From the NCBI GenBank assembly GCA_050633245.1, contig JBOEGD010000026.1:34358-98357 (forward strand): a stretch of 64,000 nt of DNA, read 5' to 3'. Each line of letters opens with the position of its first letter. The stretch's first letter is position 1. Source of the stretch: Calditrichia bacterium (GTDB lineage Bacteria > Calditrichota > Calditrichia > RBG-13-44-9 > J075). Under the pieces are notes generated by a model. The model was not told where the DNA came from. It searched no databases and saw nothing but the letters and a program-made list of their open reading frames with translations. The position numbers were made by a program, and so were the translations under genes. Below are positions 912 through 10,020 of this stretch, in pieces.

Positions 912-1074
912 GGAGTCGTATCACTTGGATGTTGATGAAATCTAACCGAATATAGGCATTTCGCAGTTTGTTACAAGCTAATGCTGATAAAGTGTATCGG
1001 AAAAATTTATATTTTGCTCAGCTTGGAGAGAAGTCAATCCGAAACTAATTATAGCATAAAACAAGGAGGTTGAT

Positions 1075-2154
1075 ATGCTGGAAGCTGTGAATCGAGAACA
1101 ATCAGATGTCCTTGTGTCTGTTGAAACCATGAAGGCATTGGTCTATTACGGTAGCCGTGATATTCGAATAGAACATGTTGAAAAACCCACCCCCGGACCT
1201 AATGAAGTATTGATTCGGGTAACTCACGCCGGAATCTCTCAAACTCAAGTAAATGAATTTGTTGAAGGCCCTTTTGTTATCAATACAGCTCCGCATCCCC
1301 TTACCGGAAAAGCTGTCCCGCTTATTCCCGGTCACGAATTTGGTGGTATTATTGAAGAAGTTGGCGCTACTGCCGGTAAGCAGCTTATCGGCAAGCAAGT
1401 CGCGGCATTACCACGGATAACGTGTGGAGAGTGTCGCTATTGTAGGTCTGGTAAAGAACATATCTGCAAGAAAATTGCCTATATCGGTTTGCTTGGTGAG
1501 AATGGTGGTTTTGCTCAATATGCCGTTGTACCAAAGCAAAATATTGTGGAGGTGCAGGATACTGCTGCTATGTCTTTTATTGAGCCGATTCTTGTTGGAC
1601 TTCATGCCGGAAGAGTTATTCAACACTTATTGCCTGCCAGTAAGGTGCTGGTTATGGGAGCGGGAGGTATTGGTGTTTGTCTGGCCGCAGTTTTACGAGA
1701 TTACTTTCGAGCTGATGTTACGCTTACCGATATTTTGCCAAATCGTCTTGCACGTATCAAAAAAGCGGGCTTCAATGTCTTGGGTAAAAATCAGTTGAAG
1801 CGCGAGTATGATATTGTAATCGATTGTGCCGGAGGCGATCCGATAAGTCAACGCTCAGCAATCTTTGAGGCATTTGATTATATCTATAACGGCGGGACAG
1901 TGCTTAATCTTGGGACTTATTTCCACCCGCTCTCCTTTGTACCGGTTACACTCACGGTTCCTGAAATGCAGCTGAGAACGTCCTTTGCTTATGATTCGCA
2001 TGATGAAGAGCTGCTCAATGATGCGTTGGAGGCGATCAAACTCGACTTCAGCGAGCTTATTGATAAGATTGACTTTGATAAACTTATCGTTGAGGGATAC
2101 TTTCGTTCGGAAGTAGACAAAGACAGCTTTATCCGTTTGGTGGTGCAACCGTAA
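1075..2154 (+). CDS. Zn-dependent MDR (2,3-butanediol dehydrogenase-like) protein with degenerate catalytic Zn site
   Basis: GHEFGG, structural Zn CxxCxxC-x7-C, GAGGIG Rossmann motif, PHPLT loop; GICGSDLH replaced by GISQTQVN; SD AAGGAGGT at 1063-1070. Confidence 0.85.
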   Translation: MLEAVNREQSDVLVSVETMKALVYYGSRDIRIEHVEKPTPGPNEVLIRVTHAGISQTQVNEFVEGPFVINTAPHPLTGKAVPLIPGHEFGGIIEEVGATAGKQLIGKQVAALPRITCGECRYCRSGKEHICKKIAYIGLLGENGGFAQYAVVPKQNIVEVQDTAAMSFIEPILVGLHAGRVIQHLLPASKVLVMGAGGIGVCLAAVLRDYFRADVTLTDILPNRLARIKKAGFNVLGKNQLKREYDIVIDCAGGDPISQRSAIFEAFDYIYNGGTVLNLGTYFHPLSFVPVTLTVPEMQLRTSFAYDSHDEELLNDALEAIKLDFSELIDKIDFDKLIVEGYFRSEVDKDSFIRLVVQP

Positions 2155-3818
2155 TGCAACTGGAGAAGCTCATAGCCGATATGCTTCAGGTTGAAATTCT
2201 TCCTGAAGATCAGGAATTGAGTTCGGATGCCGAACTAAAGCGAATTCCACTGCGCAATACCGGGATGGTTGTCTATGTGGACAACAGCTATTCTACGTCT
2301 GAGATTTTTCGCATAAAGAGCAGCCTGGAAAAACTGCTTACCAAAATTCAACCTATGCAGGCGGCTCAGGCAGAAAACGATATTCTTCGCAATGAGCTTC
2401 GTGATATCTCTGCCGCTGCCGATAAGCTGGCTCTTCAGGGCGTTGCACTTGAATATGAGTTCGATTTTTTGGCGGTTGTAAAAGCGCGCTATGTTCTTTT
2501 AAAGAACGATCAAGTATTAGTTAACACCGGCCTGGATGAACACACAATTAAGTCATCTGCTCACAAATTGATTCACCGAAATACATTTTCACTCTATATC
2601 CGTGCAGGGGAACTGATCGGTTTTAAAACGACCAGCTACAAGCTAATTGTGGTGAGTGACGAGATTTTGGATGAATCAATTAAACAGATCATCTCTACCA
2701 AGCTCAATTGGCTGGAGAGAATGCTTCAGCAGACAAGCCAGGAGCTGGAGGCTGTTTTTGAAGTGATCCCCGACTTGTTTTTGAGGGTCGATAATCAGGG
2801 TATACTTTTGGACTCTCGTGGTTCGCTTGTCTGTGGGTTACATAATTTTACCGGCGAGAACTTGGGTAAGCCGCTTTATGGTGTTTTACTCCCGGATGTC
2901 ACGGAGCAATTTCGTGCTGCGCTAGAAAGCTGTTTATCCAATAACGCCCGTGAAACAGTAGAGTTTAGCTCGAATCGATGTAATGGTATCATGCACTATG
3001 AATCGCGCTTTGTACCGCTCTCGGAATCGCAGGCTGTTATCATTATTCGGGATATTACGTATCAAAAAGAGGTGGCAGAAAATCAACATCTGCTTTTAGA
3101 CCGAGTCGAGAGCATAAATTCAGAGCTAAAAGATTTTGCATATATTGTCTCTCACGACTTAAAGGCACCACTGCGTTCAATAAAGTCGATCTCCGATTGG
3201 CTGATAAGCGATTACCAGGAACAGCTCGACGATAGCGGAAAAGAAATGCTCGATCTTCTGGGAAGCAGGGTATTGCGCATGCACAACCTTATCGAAGGAG
3301 TGCTGGCATACTCGCGGGTTGGCCAGGCAAACGAAGATCGGGTTTTGGTCGACTTGCAGCAATCTGTGAAAGACGTAACTGAGATGCTTAGTCCACCGGA
3401 GAACATCGAGATTCAGGTTTTGGGCTCACTACCAACGTTGCGGATTGGTAAAACCAGAATTGAACAGGTTTTTCAAAACTTCCTGAGTAATGCTATTAAG
3501 TATATGGATAAAGAAAATGGCAAAGTTGAGGTTAGCTATACCAGGTCGGCTTCGGAGTGTATCTTTTGCATCAAAGATAACGGACCAGGTATTTCGGAGA
3601 AACATTTTGATCGAATCTTTCGCATCTTCCAAACCGTTTCCGGTAAAGAGAGTTTCGAAAATACCGGCGTAGGCCTTAGCATTATAAAAAAGATTGTTGA
3701 AAACTATGGTGGAAGAGTCTGGATAGAATCGGTGGAGGGAGAAGGCTCTTCTTTCTTTTTCAGTTTACCGAATAACATGAGTGTTAATGCTTCAGAAGAA
3801 GAGCCTGTCGCTTTTTAA
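2154..3818 (+). CDS. Cytoplasmic PAS sensor histidine kinase (orphan)
   Basis: H-box FAYIVSHDLKAPLR, N-box NFLSNAIKY, DNGPGI, GVGLSI; PAS ending in IIRDIT; no TM; TAATG overlap with upstream gene. Confidence 0.92.
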   Translation: MQLEKLIADMLQVEILPEDQELSSDAELKRIPLRNTGMVVYVDNSYSTSEIFRIKSSLEKLLTKIQPMQAAQAENDILRNELRDISAAADKLALQGVALEYEFDFLAVVKARYVLLKNDQVLVNTGLDEHTIKSSAHKLIHRNTFSLYIRAGELIGFKTTSYKLIVVSDEILDESIKQIISTKLNWLERMLQQTSQELEAVFEVIPDLFLRVDNQGILLDSRGSLVCGLHNFTGENLGKPLYGVLLPDVTEQFRAALESCLSNNARETVEFSSNRCNGIMHYESRFVPLSESQAVIIIRDITYQKEVAENQHLLLDRVESINSELKDFAYIVSHDLKAPLRSIKSISDWLISDYQEQLDDSGKEMLDLLGSRVLRMHNLIEGVLAYSRVGQANEDRVLVDLQQSVKDVTEMLSPPENIEIQVLGSLPTLRIGKTRIEQVFQNFLSNAIKYMDKENGKVEVSYTRSASECIFCIKDNGPGISEKHFDRIFRIFQTVSGKESFENTGVGLSIIKKIVENYGGRVWIESVEGEGSSFFFSLPNNMSVNASEEEPVAF

Positions 3819-4619
3819 CTATCTTTTTATACATAGCCATGGAAATGGCGACTTTGGAGTTCCTTTCAACTTTTGACCCAATCTTATGCGAAACGATCGT
3901 GGATCGTATAAGGTCTTTGGCTTAAACGCCGCGAGTTCTTCATACGCATGATGGAAAAAATGAGAGCTTAACGCTGGAAATCCTGCCGACTGATAATAGC
4001 TGTTGCTCCGAGTTTTAGCAGCTTCGATTCCTTCTCTCGCATAGAATGGGCTGTCGATAATATGAACTTCTCCGCCCTCAGCCAGAAAGTATTGCAATCT
4101 GTTTAGTAATGTAGTGACGTTTGGAAAATACTGAATCGAGCTTCCCAATAAAATGATGTCAAAACACTTTTCCGGAAGAACGTTGTCAAAAATACTGCCA
4201 TACAGCCACAGCAATTTATCGCCGTATTCATGGAAGACCCGAGCCGCTTGCAGCAGTTCTTCGCTGTTCATGTCAAGCCCGACAGTTAGTTGGGAATAGG
4301 GGTGGAGATGTCGGGTCATCCAGCCATTACCACAGCCAATGTCTAACAGACGGGGTGGACTTTTTAGATCGGATAAGTAGCGTTGCATTCGTTCGAGAGA
4401 CTGCGCGCGAATCGTCCATTCTTGTGTTAGAGGATGATTTTCTGAAACCAGTGGCAAGGCATACAGCTGCGCATCGGAATAAAATCGACCTTCTTTTTTG
4501 CGTAGTGCAATATACGCTTCTTCAAAGCTGGTTGGGATAATGCGATCGTAGAACCAGAGTCGCTTTTCTCTGCGAGCACCGGCCTGCTTTAATTGATTTT
4601 CTAGCTGCTGTAGGGGCAT
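3819..4619 (-). CDS. Class I SAM-dependent methyltransferase
   Basis: LLDIGCGNG motif I, FDII motif. Confidence 0.88.
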   Translation of the reverse strand: MPLQQLENQLKQAGARREKRLWFYDRIIPTSFEEAYIALRKKEGRFYSDAQLYALPLVSENHPLTQEWTIRAQSLERMQRYLSDLKSPPRLLDIGCGNGWMTRHLHPYSQLTVGLDMNSEELLQAARVFHEYGDKLLWLYGSIFDNVLPEKCFDIILLGSSIQYFPNVTTLLNRLQYFLAEGGEVHIIDSPFYAREGIEAAKTRSNSYYQSAGFPALSSHFFHHAYEELAAFKPKTLYDPRSFRIRLGQKLKGTPKSPFPWLCIKR

Positions 4620-4631
4620 TCTTTTCTCATC

Positions 4632-5396
4632 TTAGCTGTCATCTCTTCTGGCAAAAACATAGCAGACATGATCTCCGCCAACCCATTCCGGGAGACGTTC
4701 CGCAAGATATTTATCCAGTCTTTTTAACAGGGGAAAGAACGGTATAAACAATTTTTCATGATTTGCGAATTGATCCGGTGTTGGTAAGACAGATGCCAGA
4801 TGAACCCGTTGTAAAACTTCAAACTCCGCCGGAAGCATATTTTTAGAGTAGTAATGCACGCTCATGCCTCCGGAAACCGGTAGCGTTTTAGAAATAAGCC
4901 TGCCATATAGTGAGGAAAAGCGCAATCGACAAACATTACCAAGTGCAGAGAAAAGGTGTAGTGGCGGCATCGTTACAATGATAACTCTTCCACCGGGAGC
5001 CAAAAGACGTTTTAGTTTTTTTTGTATCTGCACGATATCCGGCATTGCATTAATAACGCCGAAGTTCAGCAGAATGGCATCATAGAGTCTGTCCTCAGGC
5101 ATCTGAAAAAAATCGAGATGATGGACTTCTGCATCAAGTCCGGTTTTACCAGACTGTTCTTTTGCAAGTTTTACCATTTCATTGGAAATGTCGAGGGCGG
5201 TAACAAGCAGACCACGCGAACCATACCAGCCGAAATCAGAGCCGGGGCCGCAGCCAACATCCAGCAGCGTGCTGCCGGGAGAGAGCAAATTTGCCAGCAC
5301 GCGATGGATGCGCTTGCGCTGATATCGTCCAACCCTATTCAGGTTGAATTTCTGCTCGTAATCTGTTGCGTAGACGTCGAAGGTTGCTTCGATCAT
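4632..5396 (-). CDS. Class I SAM-dependent methyltransferase
   Basis: LLDVGCGPG, ALDIS, YDAI, LAPGG motifs. Confidence 0.88.
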   Translation of the reverse strand: MIEATFDVYATDYEQKFNLNRVGRYQRKRIHRVLANLLSPGSTLLDVGCGPGSDFGWYGSRGLLVTALDISNEMVKLAKEQSGKTGLDAEVHHLDFFQMPEDRLYDAILLNFGVINAMPDIVQIQKKLKRLLAPGGRVIIVTMPPLHLFSALGNVCRLRFSSLYGRLISKTLPVSGGMSVHYYSKNMLPAEFEVLQRVHLASVLPTPDQFANHEKLFIPFFPLLKRLDKYLAERLPEWVGGDHVCYVFARRDDS

Positions 5397-5427
5397 GTGG
5401 CTATCTTAGTTGGCCTGAGGCGAATTG

Positions 5428-6810
5428 TCAAGTATTTTTTGCTCTTTGGGATTTCCGGTAGACCAGAAACAGCGTCATCAGCAGAATTGCCAGCATATAC
5501 GCTGCATTAACTAACATAAAGTTGCGTTTAAAAAAGCTCTCGTTTACGTCGCGCTGGAGCCACTCGGAGAGCTTCCCGTAAATTTGCTGTCGCATCGCCG
5601 GCGGAAAGCTGCCAATTCGGGTATCGTGATAACCACCGGGATTTATCATGCGCAGTGCATCGACAGATGTGGCAGGAACAACTCCAGCTCCACTCCAGGT
5701 ATCTAATTCTCCATGGATGTAAAGAATCTCGTTGCCTTCGTTTACCAGCCACTGATGAATATCCTGCATAACCTCCGGACGATAGGTGAGATCGGCTTCC
5801 TGTGGTGCAAACGGACGATTGGAGGGCTCCGGGGCGGATGTTAGTAGATGAGCAAGGTGGTTGCTGACAAATCCGTAGTAGCCCAGCTCCGTCATTGCCT
5901 GATAAAAGAACGGCTGATAGGTAGTGATGCCTTTTTGAGTATACAGGCCGAAAATGTTCATCTTTGCAATATGGCTGAAAATCTGTGCGGCAGATGCTGT
6001 CAAATCTGGAATTTGATCGCAACGCCATCTTCCCCATTGCCAAAAAGAGAAAGGGTATTCCAAAACGGTATATTCCAAAGCCGTATCAGCGCCGTGGGGG
6101 AAAACTTCATTCTTCTCGATAGCCCATTCTTCCAGAAGTGGAATTAGTTCATGACGCTTCTCAAGCATTAGTATTTGAAACTGTTCAATCGCTTCTCTGC
6201 ACTCGCTTGTGCCAACGGTTGCGAGATGCTCATCCAGACGTTTATCCTCAACTGCCAGTGGAATGGGTGCTACCATCGGGATGGCTACATCGACATCGTT
6301 TGGATAGAACCGCTTGTGGAAGAGCGTTGTTTGTCCACCTTTGCTGATTCCGGTGCTGATCCATTTATCTGCATAGATGGACTTGAAGTGCTCGGCAATT
6401 TTGTGTAGGTCGTCGACAGACTGACGAACCGTCAGGTATTGCCAGTCCAGGCTGTCCGGAACCGATTCTCCGAAAAAGCGATGTTCAACTCTCAATTGAT
6501 TTGCCGAAAGAAGGTCACACAATTCGCTGCGAACGTGTCCATTAATTTGGTAGCCTTCGGTAATAAAAATTACCGGCTGGGTGATATCATAATGATCGAG
6601 GTAGATGCGCTGCTCAAAGTTGCCCGCTGCCGGGTTTTGATGATCCAGTGGCTGCGAGATGAAAATCTCAAACGATTGGTTAAACCCGTCTCGGGTTTCG
6701 ATTGTTTTAACGCGCATGCCTTCAAGGGCAGATAGTTGATCGCGGATATCTGCAAGCCCGCAGAGTGTGCAGCCGATTAAGAGTAGCAATATCGAGATAG
6801 AGAGTCTCAT
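5428..6810 (-). CDS. S37/S28-family serine aminopeptidase (PS-10-like) with signal peptide and C-terminal TM anchor
   Basis: QPLDH, FEQRI, VEHRFFGES, nucleophile GISKGG, C-terminal hydrophobic helix plus basic tail; start moved to MRLSISI (6810). Confidence 0.85.
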   Translation of the reverse strand: MRLSISILLLLIGCTLCGLADIRDQLSALEGMRVKTIETRDGFNQSFEIFISQPLDHQNPAAGNFEQRIYLDHYDITQPVIFITEGYQINGHVRSELCDLLSANQLRVEHRFFGESVPDSLDWQYLTVRQSVDDLHKIAEHFKSIYADKWISTGISKGGQTTLFHKRFYPNDVDVAIPMVAPIPLAVEDKRLDEHLATVGTSECREAIEQFQILMLEKRHELIPLLEEWAIEKNEVFPHGADTALEYTVLEYPFSFWQWGRWRCDQIPDLTASAAQIFSHIAKMNIFGLYTQKGITTYQPFFYQAMTELGYYGFVSNHLAHLLTSAPEPSNRPFAPQEADLTYRPEVMQDIHQWLVNEGNEILYIHGELDTWSGAGVVPATSVDALRMINPGGYHDTRIGSFPPAMRQQIYGKLSEWLQRDVNESFFKRNFMLVNAAYMLAILLMTLFLVYRKSQRAKNT

Positions 6811-6892
6811 AATATCTGTCCGGGGGATACGTTCTTGTCTGGCTAACCGATTTATTGGCAAATATAATGGACAAAACTGTGATTCGGGATCG

Positions 6893-6957
6893 GTCAGGCT
6901 GAGCGGAGTCGAAGCCCTATTGATATCTTACCAGCTTCTCGGCTGCGCCAAGGTGAC
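6893..6957. repeat. Degenerate inverted repeat GTCAGGCTGAGCGGAGTCGAAGC...GCTTC-CGGCTGCGC-CAAGGTGAC
   Basis: Left arm 6893-6915, decayed right arm 6934-6957 in a divergent intergenic region. Confidence 0.5.
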
Positions 6958-7093
6958 AAAACCCGAGTGGAAATCATTCTGTCAACGTCCGAGTTTTTCA
7001 AACATACGATTTTTTGACCAAATCTGCACGTTCTGTGTCTTTTAATTGTTCGCCATCATCGAACAAGTGAAGGCTCATCAAGGAGAAGCATTT

Positions 7094-7456
7094 ATGAAAC
7101 CACAGCTCGTTTTTGTCTACAATGCCGATAGCGGTTTGTTTAACACCATGGCCGATATTGCGCATAAGCTTATTTCTCCGCAAACCTATAGCTGTAACCT
7201 CTGCGCGCTCACCCACACGGCATTTGGAATGAAGGATGACTGGCGGGATTTTCTGGAAACTCTCAATGCGGAACTGGAGTTTTTGCATCGCGATGAATTT
7301 GTTAAGGCCGGTGGTTCCGATAGTGCCGACCTGCCGGCAATCTTTCTGCGCAAGGAAATCACGTTTGATGTTTGGATGTCGGCGGCTGAGATCAACAAGC
7401 TGGAAGATTTGGAGAGTTTGAAAAGCGGTATTCACCAGCGGCTTCAAGCAGAGTGA
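7094..7456 (+). CDS. Conserved hypothetical protein (thioredoxin-like, VYNADSG / YSCNLC motifs)
   Basis: SD AGGAG before ATG 7094; CxxC motif. Confidence 0.7.
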   Translation: MKPQLVFVYNADSGLFNTMADIAHKLISPQTYSCNLCALTHTAFGMKDDWRDFLETLNAELEFLHRDEFVKAGGSDSADLPAIFLRKEITFDVWMSAAEINKLEDLESLKSGIHQRLQAE

Positions 7457-7585
7457 GTAGCGGTCTGCTTTTCTGACCCAAAACTATCGCAGCAGCACCA
7501 TCTTTTTCACCTGTGATTGATTGGCTGCTATTAGATTGTAATCAATTGTAATAAATGGCAAGTACGTGCCGATAAAGAAATCACT

Positions 7586-7617
7586 TGCATTGTAGTTACA
7601 TCGTGTCTGCATTGTAG
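7586..7617 (+). promoter_or_regulatory. Candidate TA promoter/operator: direct repeat TGCATTGTAG x2 (22-nt period) overlapping imperfect palindrome TGTAGTTACA
   Basis: Repeats at 7586-7595 and 7608-7617, ~130 nt upstream of the antitoxin. Confidence 0.3.
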
Positions 7618-7749
7618 CTCGGAAATAGAGCAGTTTAGTTGGATATTATAAAGCGTGCTCCACCCACATCGATTTTTGTGATCTATAGCGCCCAAGTCGT
7701 TTTGTAGGAAGAGTACGCTGATTTTAATTACACAGCCCAAGGTGTCATT

Positions 7750-8025
7750 ATGAGCAGCAATAAGAACACAGTCGTTAGAGCTCGAATTGATTCTGAGTTA
7801 AAACAGGATGTCGAAAGTATATTGAATACTATGGGATTGAATGTATCTGATGCAATCAGTCTCTTATTCAATATGATTAGACTACATAATGGAATACCCT
7901 TTGAAGTTAAAATACCCGTTTTAAAACCAGAAGTAATTGAAACCTTCAAGAAAACTGATGCAAACGAAGACTTAGAAGAATTCGAGACCATTGACGATCT
8001 GAGGCAATCAATCAAGAAATGGTGA
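7750..8025 (+). CDS. dinJ: RelB/DinJ-family antitoxin
   Basis: VRARIDSELKQ...MGLNVSDAI...GIPFEV RHH signature, directly upstream of YafQ-like gene. Confidence 0.88.
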   Translation: MSSNKNTVVRARIDSELKQDVESILNTMGLNVSDAISLLFNMIRLHNGIPFEVKIPVLKPEVIETFKKTDANEDLEEFETIDDLRQSIKKW

Positions 8026-8031
8026 TGTGTA

Positions 8032-8291
8032 ATGAAAAAGATTGTTGTAACGGGTAGTTTCAAGAAAGGGATGAAGAGGGTTAGAAAAAGAGGTTGGGAC
8101 GAAGAGGAACTTGTAACAGTTGCTCAAATGCTAGCAAAGGATGAAGTTTTACCTGAGCGATATAAGGATCATAAACTTGTTGGCAACGCCGCGAGTGCCA
8201 TATACGTCCCGACTGGCTATTAATCTACAAGGTTGAAGAAGATCGTATTATTCTTGAATATACCGGAAGTCATTCAGACCTTTTTGACTAA
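8032..8291 (+). pseudogene. yafQ: YafQ-family mRNA interferase, frameshifted near 8188
   Basis: N-part ...LPERYKDHKLVGN; C-part in another frame RECHIRPDWLLIYKVEEDRIILEYTGSHSDLFD* (TAA 8289-8291). Confidence 0.85.
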
Positions 8292-8494
8292 CCTTATTAT
8301 TCAGTGATGAAGTTATGATGTCGAGAATGCATTTGACGATTTTTGGGAGGAACTACCATAAACTTTATGTGAGTTACTTTGTAGGATTGCTTTTGGAAGT
8401 AAACTTCAATCTCTAAATCTGATTTTTTTTGACTTCTGCCAAGGGATTCTTAATACACAATTTAATAAGCTGTTTAAGAGAAAAGAATTGAATG

Positions 8495-8534
8495 AAATGT
8501 AAAGCGCCGATTTTTTGACGCTTTACATTTTTTT
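8495..8534. terminator. Probable bidirectional intrinsic terminator
   Basis: AAATGTAAAGCG (8495-8506) / CGCTTTACATTT (8519-8530) followed by T-run, between convergent units. Confidence 0.7.
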
Positions 8535-8560
8535 GTAGTAAATAAAAATATCGAGGAGTT

Positions 8561-9568
8561 TTAAGGCGTATTACCAATTGCCCAATCAATCAGATACAGT
8601 GCCGCAGGCAGATTCTCTTCAAACGTCGGCTGGATCTCGCTATCTGGTAGTTCAAAACCGGGAAAACGGCTGCGCGGACGCAATTCAATGGTGAAGGCCA
8701 TCGCGTTTTGCACGGCATATAACCAGTCCGCAGTGTCTCCACTGGCAAGATACAGATCGGATGCCTGTTGCGGCGTGTAGGACTTGCCGTGTACCGCCAG
8801 TATCTTTGCGGCCATCGCGCTGGCAAGCTGATCGAGCTGCACGTCATCAGGTGTCGGTGCATTGGTATGTCCCCAGGGATAGAGAACCAGTTGACTATAG
8901 CTGTGATAGGTAATCATTGCTTTTGGCTGTTCGCGATTTAGAAAATCACGCACGGCACGAGACTCCGGCTCCGAGAAGGCTGACGGTCCTCGATAGGTCT
9001 CGGAAAAACTGTCTCCCGATGAACCGGGTCCACCCCACTGATAACCATAGTTACGATTGAGGTCGACGCCAAATGTTCCATCACCATTATCGCGACGATT
9101 TTTACGCCACAGGCGATTGGTGGTAACCGAGTACTGGTGTCCATCGGGATTTACCATTGGAACAAACCAAACTTCTGCATTGTCGATTAAGCGCGTTATT
9201 AGTGTATCACTCCCGTATGCGTTTAACAGGTGATCCGCAGTTAGCAATGGAACGTCGACGGAAATCCATTCGCGGGCATGATGTGCGCCAAAGAAAATTA
9301 CCACCGGTTCGTCTTCATCCTGGCTGACATTGTCGCTTATTTTTAATGCGGAAATCTGACGCCCTTCCAGAGATTGGCCAATTGAAGACACCGCTGCTAT
9401 TTGTGGATGCGTGTTTTGAAATGACTGTAGTTTTTGATTCACTTCCGCATAGTTATGAAAAAGGCCGGCCGTCGGATCGGGCGGAGTGGTGGTGCCGTTA
9501 CACGAGTTGAGCAGGAATAGCAGGGAAGCATTTAGCAGCATTAAGGAACTTATTTTCGACCAGCTCAT
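8561..9568 (-). CDS. M14 zinc carboxypeptidase (carboxypeptidase T-like) lipoprotein without propeptide
   Basis: HAREW, WRKNR, GVDLNRNY, YHSYSQ, IELRP motifs; lipobox LNSC. Confidence 0.92.
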   Translation of the reverse strand: MSWSKISSLMLLNASLLFLLNSCNGTTTPPDPTAGLFHNYAEVNQKLQSFQNTHPQIAAVSSIGQSLEGRQISALKISDNVSQDEDEPVVIFFGAHHAREWISVDVPLLTADHLLNAYGSDTLITRLIDNAEVWFVPMVNPDGHQYSVTTNRLWRKNRRDNGDGTFGVDLNRNYGYQWGGPGSSGDSFSETYRGPSAFSEPESRAVRDFLNREQPKAMITYHSYSQLVLYPWGHTNAPTPDDVQLDQLASAMAAKILAVHGKSYTPQQASDLYLASGDTADWLYAVQNAMAFTIELRPRSRFPGFELPDSEIQPTFEENLPAALYLIDWAIGNTP

Positions 9569-10020
9569 TTGTTCTCCTCCCTGCGCGTTTGACTGTTCTC
9601 TTCCAGAATGGCCACCGTAAAACCGGCGTCTCTTAAGCGGGTGATGTGCAGGTCGTACGCCTGTGCAACTGCTTTGTTTTCCTCAACATCCCACAGGTCA
9701 ATTCCCATGTCAACGATGGTTTGGACAGATGTCGAATCCTGAAGTTGAATTTCAACGACGCGCTGTATCAAATCTGCTTCATTTAGCTGCACGGTGTTAA
9801 CGGCCTGCACGGCCTGCATGCCGTCGATGCGAATAATAATGTAATCGGGTTGCTTTACCAGAATTTCAGCTCCGGCATTGGTCAACTTTTCAATCGTTGC
9901 TGCATCGGCCGTCGGAACTTTACGCAGGCCTTTGCCGGTTGAAAGTGCTTCAACGGGTTCGGGGGTAGCGCATCCGGTAAGGAAGGCAACAATTAAAAAA
10001 ATACTGAAGAATATTCTCAT
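9565..10020 (-). CDS. Lipoprotein with two M14 propeptide-like modules
   Basis: Start MRIFFSI (SD GAGGG), lipobox LTGC; GIDLWD...LRDAGFTVAILEE pattern; ATGA overlap with the carboxypeptidase. Confidence 0.65.
   Translation of the reverse strand: MRIFFSIFLIVAFLTGCATPEPVEALSTGKGLRKVPTADAATIEKLTNAGAEILVKQPDYIIIRIDGMQAVQAVNTVQLNEADLIQRVVEIQLQDSTSVQTIVDMGIDLWDVEENKAVAQAYDLHITRLRDAGFTVAILEENSQTRREENK

Follow-up and report, generated by a model that had tools for sequence, protein, structure and literature searches.

A dehydrogenase-fold protein encoded beside kinases and cyclic di-GMP enzymes that share an N-terminal domain: a candidate two-protein sensory module in a Calditrichia bacterium and other bacteria

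CtBP, Rex and NmrA are NAD(H)-sensing regulators. Metabolic state can also be relayed by protein contact, as reviewed for trigger enzymes and transporter co-sensors such as RocG-GltC and DctA/DcuB-DcuS (PMC6978683). In PruR-DcpA/PruR-DTB pterin signalling, the gene for the SUOX-like protein PruR precedes the regulator gene in a two-gene operon, and the regulator's cognate receiver domain is joined to a GGDEF-EAL or sensor-kinase core, with binding demonstrated experimentally (PMC13259868). In the pairs H-NOX/HnoK, H-NOX/diguanylate cyclase and NosP/NahK, a soluble stand-alone sensor is encoded beside a histidine kinase or a cyclic di-GMP (c-di-GMP) enzyme and regulates it (reviewed in PMC8846402). 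Here, we analyzed a gene pair located in a 64,000-nucleotide stretch of the Calditrichia bacterium assembly GCA_050633245.1 (contig JBOEGD010000026.1, positions 34,358 to 98,357 of the forward strand; this whole stretch is called the window), in which a gene encoding a medium-chain dehydrogenase/reductase (MDR)-like protein is followed by a gene encoding a soluble histidine kinase. We consider it probable (roughly 0.6) that this pair is a conserved two-protein cytoplasmic sensory module in which the MDR-like protein acts as the ligand-binding input.

The PruR-DcpA/PruR-DTB systems follow the same modular logic, namely an enzyme-fold binding protein with a cognate receiver domain. However, they are periplasmic and membrane-spanning and combine the SUOX-like family with the DcpA periplasmic domain, whereas the module proposed here is cytoplasmic and combines an MDR with a Roadblock/GAF-like domain. 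H-NOX and NosP sensors are haem-based and gas-sensing; in contrast, the candidate sensor of this module is dehydrogenase-like in fold and bears NAD-binding motifs, and its partners have a dedicated common N-terminal domain. None of RocG-GltC, DctA/DcuB-DcuS, CtBP, Rex and NmrA is an MDR tied to kinases or c-di-GMP enzymes via a dedicated domain. In the open-access full-text literature, we found no paper on an MDR- or alcohol dehydrogenase-like protein paired with kinases or c-di-GMP enzymes, nor one on the N-terminal domain, and the word "dehydrogenase" occurs zero times in a 2022 census of c-di-GMP sensory inputs. Our analysis suggests that the module consists of an accessory sensor protein and its cognate receiver domain, drawn from two families not known in that role.

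The gene pair comprises the following features:
1061..1067, + strand: Shine-Dalgarno-like AAGGAGG, ending 7 nt 5' of the ATG at 1075 (read from the sequence)
1075..2154, + strand: MDR-like protein of 359 amino acids, member of a "QTQ-NEF" clade of butanediol/polyol-dehydrogenase-type MDRs and proposed co-sensor
2152..2156, + strand: TAATG stop/start overlap, consistent with translational coupling (read from the sequence)
2154..3818, + strand: soluble histidine kinase of 554 amino acids (open reading frame (ORF) list, Pfam, NCBIfam)

The Shine-Dalgarno-like motif supports the start of the MDR-like ORF at 1075. The TAA of this ORF (2152-2154) and the ATG of the kinase (2154-2156) have one base in common.

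Clade membership was defined by a word-indexed search of 5.8 billion proteins with the MDR-like protein. The clade is sharply bounded, as ranks 2-94 (the 93 proteins after the window's own) show 44-75% identity at 267-627 bits and the next match drops to 137 bits and 30% identity. The nearest named relative is a protein from a Calditrichota metagenome-assembled genome (MAG), and the source names of the relatives are "(R,R)-butanediol dehydrogenase" or "alcohol dehydrogenase catalytic domain-containing protein". A forward scan with clade patterns retrieved 15 loci in genomes of species representatives and another 19 in metagenomes (given by L numbers where they have to be told apart). After setting aside two duplicates with identical coordinates and scores (L043 = L021, L032 = L027) and six loci in which the contig ends inside the MDR gene (L020, L036, L037, L044, L045 and L046), 27 evaluable loci were obtained: the window, 14 from genomes and 12 from metagenomes.

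In all 27 of these loci, the next gene on the same strand carries an N-terminal domain of about 195 residues. A hidden Markov model (HMM) of this domain (197 positions, built from 14 domains, with 11 of the 12 metagenome loci outside the training set) aligned over its full length with the start of the downstream protein in 23 loci; in the other four, a contig end cuts the match (L026, L030) or the match starts at profile position 27-30 (L038, L040). The MDR and partner genes overlap in 21 of the 27 loci and lie at most 2 nt apart in three more (one of these gaps, at L018, was computed from the match end only), and the gap is 22-154 nt in the remaining three. The same 7-nt overlap (ATG-n-TAA/TAG) is present in 12 loci from several phyla (e.g., L014 2242, L017 7029 and L027 8921), where it would encode the C-terminal Cys of the MDR together with the Met-Leu start of the partner.

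The reverse test used the domain-only profile over 1281 genomes from four lineage samples (178, 401, 301 and 401 genomes). Matches were found in 9/178 genomes from the phylum of an Aquificales carrier, 1/401 of the Chloroflexota sample (the centre genome only), 2/301 Vibrionaceae and 3/401 of the Campylobacterota sample. In all 15 genomes, a full-length clade MDR (310-570 bits) is encoded directly upstream on the same strand, and ten of these loci are new. Both tests bear out the expectation of the first-pass annotation of this DNA that homologues of the GISQTQ-type MDR would consistently neighbour signalling proteins (histidine kinase, GGDEF and GGDEF-EAL proteins) with a common N-terminal domain. 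The domain is single-copy in the 6.3-Mb genome of the window, where no other ORF of the 64-kb window matches it at E<=10. Of ten other carrier genomes, nine likewise have one copy, located at the MDR locus. The exception, L025 (an Anaerolineae MAG), encodes two consecutive PAS-rich proteins (1577-6244 and 6771-9575, the latter reaching the contig end), both starting with the domain, and is the sole departure from one MDR to one partner. As a negative control, the domain was searched for at 11 ordinary MDR loci of genomes related to that of the window, with no match at E<=10.

The trees of the two families were also compared. Across 31 pairs, the mirror-tree correlation between MDR and domain was r=0.79, a value reached by none of 2000 permutations, which we count as co-inheritance only, because shared descent alone can yield such a correlation. 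Terminal clades agree between the MDR tree and the domain tree. The two genes form a tightly coupled, ancient pair, specific to each other and with exchangeable outputs. Another explanation would be that an ordinary dehydrogenase of the butanediol or threonine type lies beside an orphan kinase by chance, and that its altered catalytic residue (Ser55, see below) is neutral or erroneous. The names of the relatives and the nearest solved relative, a butanediol dehydrogenase, speak for it. However, it is already contradicted by the neighbourhood counts (27/27 and 15/15 across several phyla vs 0/11 control loci), dehydrogenase family models score the protein far under their cut-offs (118 vs 380 bits), and the Ser is common to relatives down to 54% identity; we give this explanation almost no credence.

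The MDR-like protein itself belongs, by fold and descent, to the zinc-dependent MDR superfamily. Both the GroES-like catalytic domain and the Rossmann coenzyme domain are present (Pfam ADH_N, E = 1.7e-23; ADH_zinc_N weak and under its cut-off), and the nearest solved relative is the Bacillus subtilis (R,R)-butanediol dehydrogenase 6ie0 (phmmer E = 1.2e-27). The AlphaFold2 (AF2) model has a pLDDT of 93 and a pTM of 0.91, with 6ie0_A as its top structural match (TM 0.81, 24% identity); an 18-residue N-terminal extension, common to the closest relatives, is disordered in this model. All 25 NCBIfam dehydrogenase models listed for the protein (Tdh, IolM, GatD and others) fall below their cut-offs, the best score being that of L-threonine 3-dehydrogenase (118.4 bits vs a cut-off of 380). 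The sites that matter for its function are the following:
1231..1260, + strand: altered catalytic loop G53-I-S-Q-T-Q-V-N-E-F62 (alignments)
1330..1338, + strand: G86-H87-E88, retained catalytic-zinc His/Glu (alignments; CQE, SQE or GHS in other branches)
1423..1467, + strand: structural-zinc lobe Cys117/120/123/131 (CCCC in 84/88 family members)
1657..1731, + strand: Rossmann motif G195-A-G-G-I-G200 through D219 (alignments)

The altered loop aligns with G-I-C-G-S-D-L-H-E-Y of 6ie0, so that Ser55 (tct, 1237-1239) occupies the position of the catalytic-zinc Cys (Cys46 of horse alcohol dehydrogenase) in 6ie0 and other solved MDRs. Of the second-shell and proton-relay residues in G-[ST]-D-x-H, T57 alone is retained, the Gly, Asp and His being replaced by Q56, Q58 and N60. 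E170-P171 keeps the Glu zinc ligand of the EP motif, the P73-H-P-L-T77 loop is present, and the acidic D219 would point to NAD(H), not NADP(H), as the coenzyme. These alignments agree with the first-pass annotation, which had read a retained structural zinc site, GHE, GxGxxG and PHPLT next to a GISQTQVN segment with its Ser codon at 1237-1239. Compared with zinc-dependent polyol dehydrogenases (6ie0, sorbitol and threonine dehydrogenases), the clade is alike in fold, zinc lobe, PHPLT, GHE, EP Glu, GxGxxG and the acidic residue after beta-2. In contrast, it has C, S or T at the catalytic Cys, replaces G-S-D-x-H by Q-T-Q-x-N, carries Y-F-H-P and G-Y-[YF]-R-x-E-V-D motifs of its own with R354 for Lys, and its gene is paired with a signalling gene at every evaluable locus. 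By these comparisons, the window protein is a member of the superfamily that lacks two of its defining catalytic features, the Cys of the zinc site and the relay G-[ST]-D-x-H.

A family alignment of 88 proteins (leaving out the partial P0004 and P0090-P0094) shows how old these changes are. G53, Q56, T57, E61, F62, E170, P171, G195, G197, G200 and R224 are invariant. Compared with 35 canonical relatives, the residues specific to the clade are Q56 (Gly in 100% of these relatives), Q58 (Asp in 94%), N60 (His in 80%), F62, G90, L173, Y282-F283-H284, Y342, R344, F352, R354 (Lys in 100%) and V356. A clade HMM scores members at 310-570 bits and the 11 ordinary MDR loci at 93-144 bits. In a FastTree phylogeny of 31 paired members with 6 ordinary MDR outgroups, the clade is monophyletic; the tree left out duplicates (L032, L043, L050 and L053), partial sequences (L030 and L039) and truncated or unpaired ones (L020, L026, L036, L037 and L044-L046).

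The S55 and G86-H87-E88 positions vary within the clade: C/GHE is found in 44 of the 88 proteins, S/CQE in 22, S/SQE in 11, S/GHE in 8 (the type of the window protein) and C/GHQ in 3, so that 33 of the 88 proteins have Gln in place of the zinc-site His. In the MDR tree, the S/GHE group of the window is nested within the C/GHE group. Four genomes of 1.1-1.4 Mb (L054-L057) hold a deep MDR branch in which Thr takes the place of the Cys, GHE has become GHS and the PHPLTG loop is deleted, and which is still paired with a GGDEF-EAL partner. An exhaustive search of representatives found further degenerate members (e.g., S/GQQ) and an intermediate G-I-C-Q-T-D before reaching canonical G-I-C-G-[ST]-D-x-H-E-Y proteins. 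Two explanations of the altered segment were rejected. The TCT codon differs from TGT by one base, and a sequencing error is ruled out as all eight S/GHE proteins carry Ser, down to 54% identity; private decay of a single gene is ruled out by the altered segment being a strongly conserved clade signature.

It had been argued from the window alone that several coordinated substitutions spoke against a single error. The absence of an error holds, but the substitutions are common to the whole clade, about half of which bears Cys. The Q-T-Q-x-N segment thus reads as a clade signature rather than as evidence that the window gene alone was inactivated: the coordinated loop substitutions are old and conserved, with only Cys to Ser specific to the sub-clade of the window. 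Since Cys is kept in 47 of 88 members, the family as a whole cannot be called pseudo-enzymes. What the alignment does indicate is that the catalytic-zinc ligands are dispensable in the clade while the NAD-binding motifs and the re-modelled loop [C/S]-Q-T-Q-x-N-E-F are invariant.

The strongest competing explanation holds that the MDR works as an NAD-dependent oxidoreductase, relying on zinc in some branches and not in others, and that the partner domain binds its product or substrate with no contact between the two proteins. Half of the clade has the full zinc triad and all members have NAD-binding motifs, and a precedent is found in the PruA-PruR-DcpA pathway, in which the PruA reductase feeds a c-di-GMP regulator (PMC13259868). 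However, ligands have been lost in at least four states (S/GHE, S/CQE, S/SQE and T/GHS) with the pairing retained, a pattern that a single conserved reaction does not easily explain, and gene overlap at 21/27 loci with a near 1:1 gene count is more typical of subunits. We therefore regard an enzyme coupled to a product sensor as unlikely, although it deserves more weight than any other alternative.

The MDR-like protein is proposed to dock on the N-terminal domain of its partner, which in the window kinase precedes a conventional kinase core:
2154..2735, + strand: un-named domain at the N-terminus (residues 1-194) and putative receiver of the MDR-like protein (profiles, AF2 model)
2856..3068, + strand: weak PAS_4, residues 235-305 (Pfam E = 0.0039, below cut-off)
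3126..3323, + strand: HisKA, residues 325-390, with H-box H334 in HDLKAP (Pfam E = 3.6e-8)
3453..3773, + strand: HATPase_c, residues 434-540 (Pfam E = 6e-26)

For the PAS_4 region, a close relative carries a precomputed PF08448. No transmembrane helix was detected in the kinase (maximum 19-residue Kyte-Doolittle mean of 1.01), and no Response_reg domain was found in the 10 kb before the pair or in some 5.7 kb after it, which makes the protein an orphan kinase. The first-pass annotation had proposed a kinase with no transmembrane segment, about 190 unrecognised N-terminal residues before PAS-HisKA-HATPase and no adjacent response regulator, its start codon overlapping the MDR stop in TAATG. Pfam, NCBIfam and hydropathy analysis support the description of the kinase, albeit with a weak PAS, the overlap was found by direct reading, and the lack of a response regulator holds over the flanks just given.

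The N-terminal domain matched no consistent Pfam family at E<=1 (15 members searched) and no NCBIfam model at E<=0.1, and a profile search of PDB sequences gave a best E-value of 0.23, to an unrelated chain. A word-based search with kinase residues 1-193 gave only three close relatives; the wider family was gathered through locus scans and profiles. The domain is homologous across outputs, as profiles of seven kinase-type and seven c-di-GMP-type partners align with an hhalign probability of 99.9 (E = 1e-32, 193 columns). Its conserved polar residues are K55, N124, T131, K138, G152-E153, K177 and W186. The AF2 model (29-row alignment; mean pLDDT 83.6, pTM 0.51) predicts a small beta subdomain at residues 1-43 (three strands and a helix), followed by a long helix spanning 48-95, an alpha-beta2-alpha-beta3 module at 105-168 (Roadblock/GAF-like over about 97-170) and an exit helix at 174-193.

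Foldseek returned nothing under E = 1e-3 with this model (best 1.4e-3), and structural neighbours in the Atlas were Roadblock/LAMTOR-like and below the Atlas bar. With an exhaustive structural aligner, residues 97-194 superpose on Roadblock/LC7 (Z 11.3, rmsd 2.4 Å over 97 residues), GAF (Z 10.1), MglB (Z 10.0) and profilin (Z~10); at such Z scores, the Roadblock, GAF and profilin folds are indistinguishable for this model. The comparison covers residues 97-194, with residues 1-95 barely probed by fold searches. The superposition would relate the domain to Roadblock/LC7 proteins (MglB, Ragulator) and GAF; however, the domain also includes a beta subdomain at its N-terminus and a helix of 48 residues, and residues 97-194 gave no sequence-profile match to Robl_LC7 (PF03259) or GAF. 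Roadblock/GAF-type folds serve as protein-docking or small-ligand modules. That GAF (Z 10.1) and Roadblock (Z 11.3) are about equally near to the domain is a further point for a partner that senses a product of the MDR.

The 37 non-duplicate partners comprise 12 kinase-type proteins, one with PAS/GAF domains only, 6 GGDEF proteins, 14 GGDEF-EAL proteins and 4 cut by contig ends. The kinase-type group includes plain kinases, receiver hybrids, one protein with a PP2C phosphatase and one PAS/GAF giant; only HATPase_c was detected in two of them, and one is cut after HisKA. The sequence GGEEF is found in all six GGDEF-only partners, and GG[DE]EF in none of the 14 GGDEF-EAL partners, so the outputs probably include both cyclases and phosphodiesterases. 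Kinase outputs occur with GHE-type MDRs and c-di-GMP outputs with S/[CS]QE and T/GHS types, with one exception (L019). This association follows the tree, and no functional rule is to be read from it. At L014, a 1467-amino acid partner (2242-6642) has many PAS and two GAF domains with no recognised output domain, and a stand-alone receiver protein (7187-7561) is encoded about 545 nt after it.

These architectures bear on the direction of the interaction. Adjacency and coupling by themselves give no direction, so that the domain could instead be a clamp by which the signalling protein controls an MDR enzyme or is scaffolded by it, making the MDR the target. However, the domain precedes PAS, HisKA, GGDEF and EAL at the N-terminus, where input domains are placed, and several alternative output enzymes on one domain follow the pattern of a sensor module rather than that of an effector. 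Moreover, no other input domain was detected by Pfam, at the thresholds used, in 22 kinase, GGDEF and GGDEF-EAL partners besides the window kinase and L025. In the shortest partners (about 396 amino acids), the exit helix runs nearly straight into GGDEF, which would be the usual place of an input domain controlling a dimeric output by way of a helix. We consider the reverse direction highly improbable.

Carriers of the module besides the window's genome belong to Chloroflexota, Desulfobacterota-type, Bacillota, Aquificota, Campylobacterota, Myxococcota and Gammaproteobacteria, and include the cultured Vibrio hannami and Vibrio sp. HN007; going by source names, clade members are also present in Nitratiruptor, Nitrosophilus and Persephonella. 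A search of the 40 genomes nearest to that of the window yielded no ortholog of the clade MDR, so the distribution of the module is sparse and patchy. In a Shewanella locus (L018, 1499-7389), a DMSO-reductase-like gene cluster lies immediately upstream of the module, with an MtrB/PioB porin, a molybdopterin oxidoreductase, a chaperone and a 4Fe-4S protein; such a context is absent from the other loci.

Returning to a sensory module with the MDR as input, we propose the following mechanism. The MDR-like protein would bind NAD(H) and/or a small diol/ketol-like metabolite, the most likely ligand, in its former active site, and would dock at roughly 1:1 on the N-terminal domain of its partner. MDRs close their two domains upon coenzyme binding. 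Such ligand-dependent closure could be read by the Roadblock/GAF-like domain, and the signal would then travel via the exit helix to a PAS-DHp-CA, GGDEF or EAL output. In the genome of the window, the output would be autophosphorylation of the orphan kinase, with a response regulator presumably encoded elsewhere.

More tentatively, and at somewhat less than even odds, the clade may consist of dehydrogenase-derived cytoplasmic receptors midway from enzyme to sensor, complexed with a new Roadblock-like docking domain. The QTQ-x-N-E-F loop and the NAD(H) pocket would then read the NADH/NAD+ ratio or a diol/ketol metabolite, and the stoichiometric complex would drive two-component phosphorylation or c-di-GMP synthesis and breakdown across seven or more bacterial phyla. 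Release from catalysis would be marked by a stepwise loss of ligands from C/GHE to S/GHE, S/CQE, S/SQE and T/GHS.

Several points weigh against an MDR that serves as a ligand-binding input. First, 44 of the 88 clade members keep the Cys/His/Glu triad together with the Thr equivalent to Ser/Thr48, and on this basis those with the full triad may be working oxidoreductases; the window protein itself retains the His, both Glu and the Thr. Second, the GAF-like module might bind a small molecule on its own. Third, the forward scan was limited to members with the two clade motifs used as search patterns, the loci come mostly from MAGs, and many of them are kin, so that the 37 pairs represent far fewer independent events (about a dozen clades). 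Finally, no MDR-signalling fusion was found among proteins of 635-2000 amino acids at E<=1e-20, a search that is itself weak evidence.

The surroundings of the pair in the window appear unrelated to the module, and other loci lack the same context. Upstream, on the opposite strand, lies a PMT_2-like glycosyltransferase gene (3-911, - strand), and further upstream on the contig there are more glycosyltransferase, methyltransferase, PIG-L and GNAT genes. Two SAM-methyltransferase genes (3819-5396, - strand) converge on the 3' end of the kinase gene. Further downstream (7750-8223, + strand), a RelB antitoxin (PF04221, E = 3.3e-11) is followed by a short YafQ-like toxin ORF of 63 amino acids, which covers only positions 2-53 of the 88-position profile and may be truncated. 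Promoter and terminator scans gave counts at shuffle level (7 found vs 5.6 expected and 4 vs 3.2, respectively).

For most cytoplasmic kinases and c-di-GMP enzymes, the inputs are unknown. The invariable pairing of the MDR with the N-terminal domain suggests an undescribed way of sensing internal state, and through it about 37 such signalling proteins gain a candidate input protein and a defined receiver domain. The presence of the module in cultured bacteria makes the idea directly testable, and the clade offers a natural series for the study of the change from enzyme to receptor. If the MDR does read NAD(H) or a fermentation-type metabolite, redox or carbon state would be tied directly to phosphorelay and to biofilm and motility signalling.

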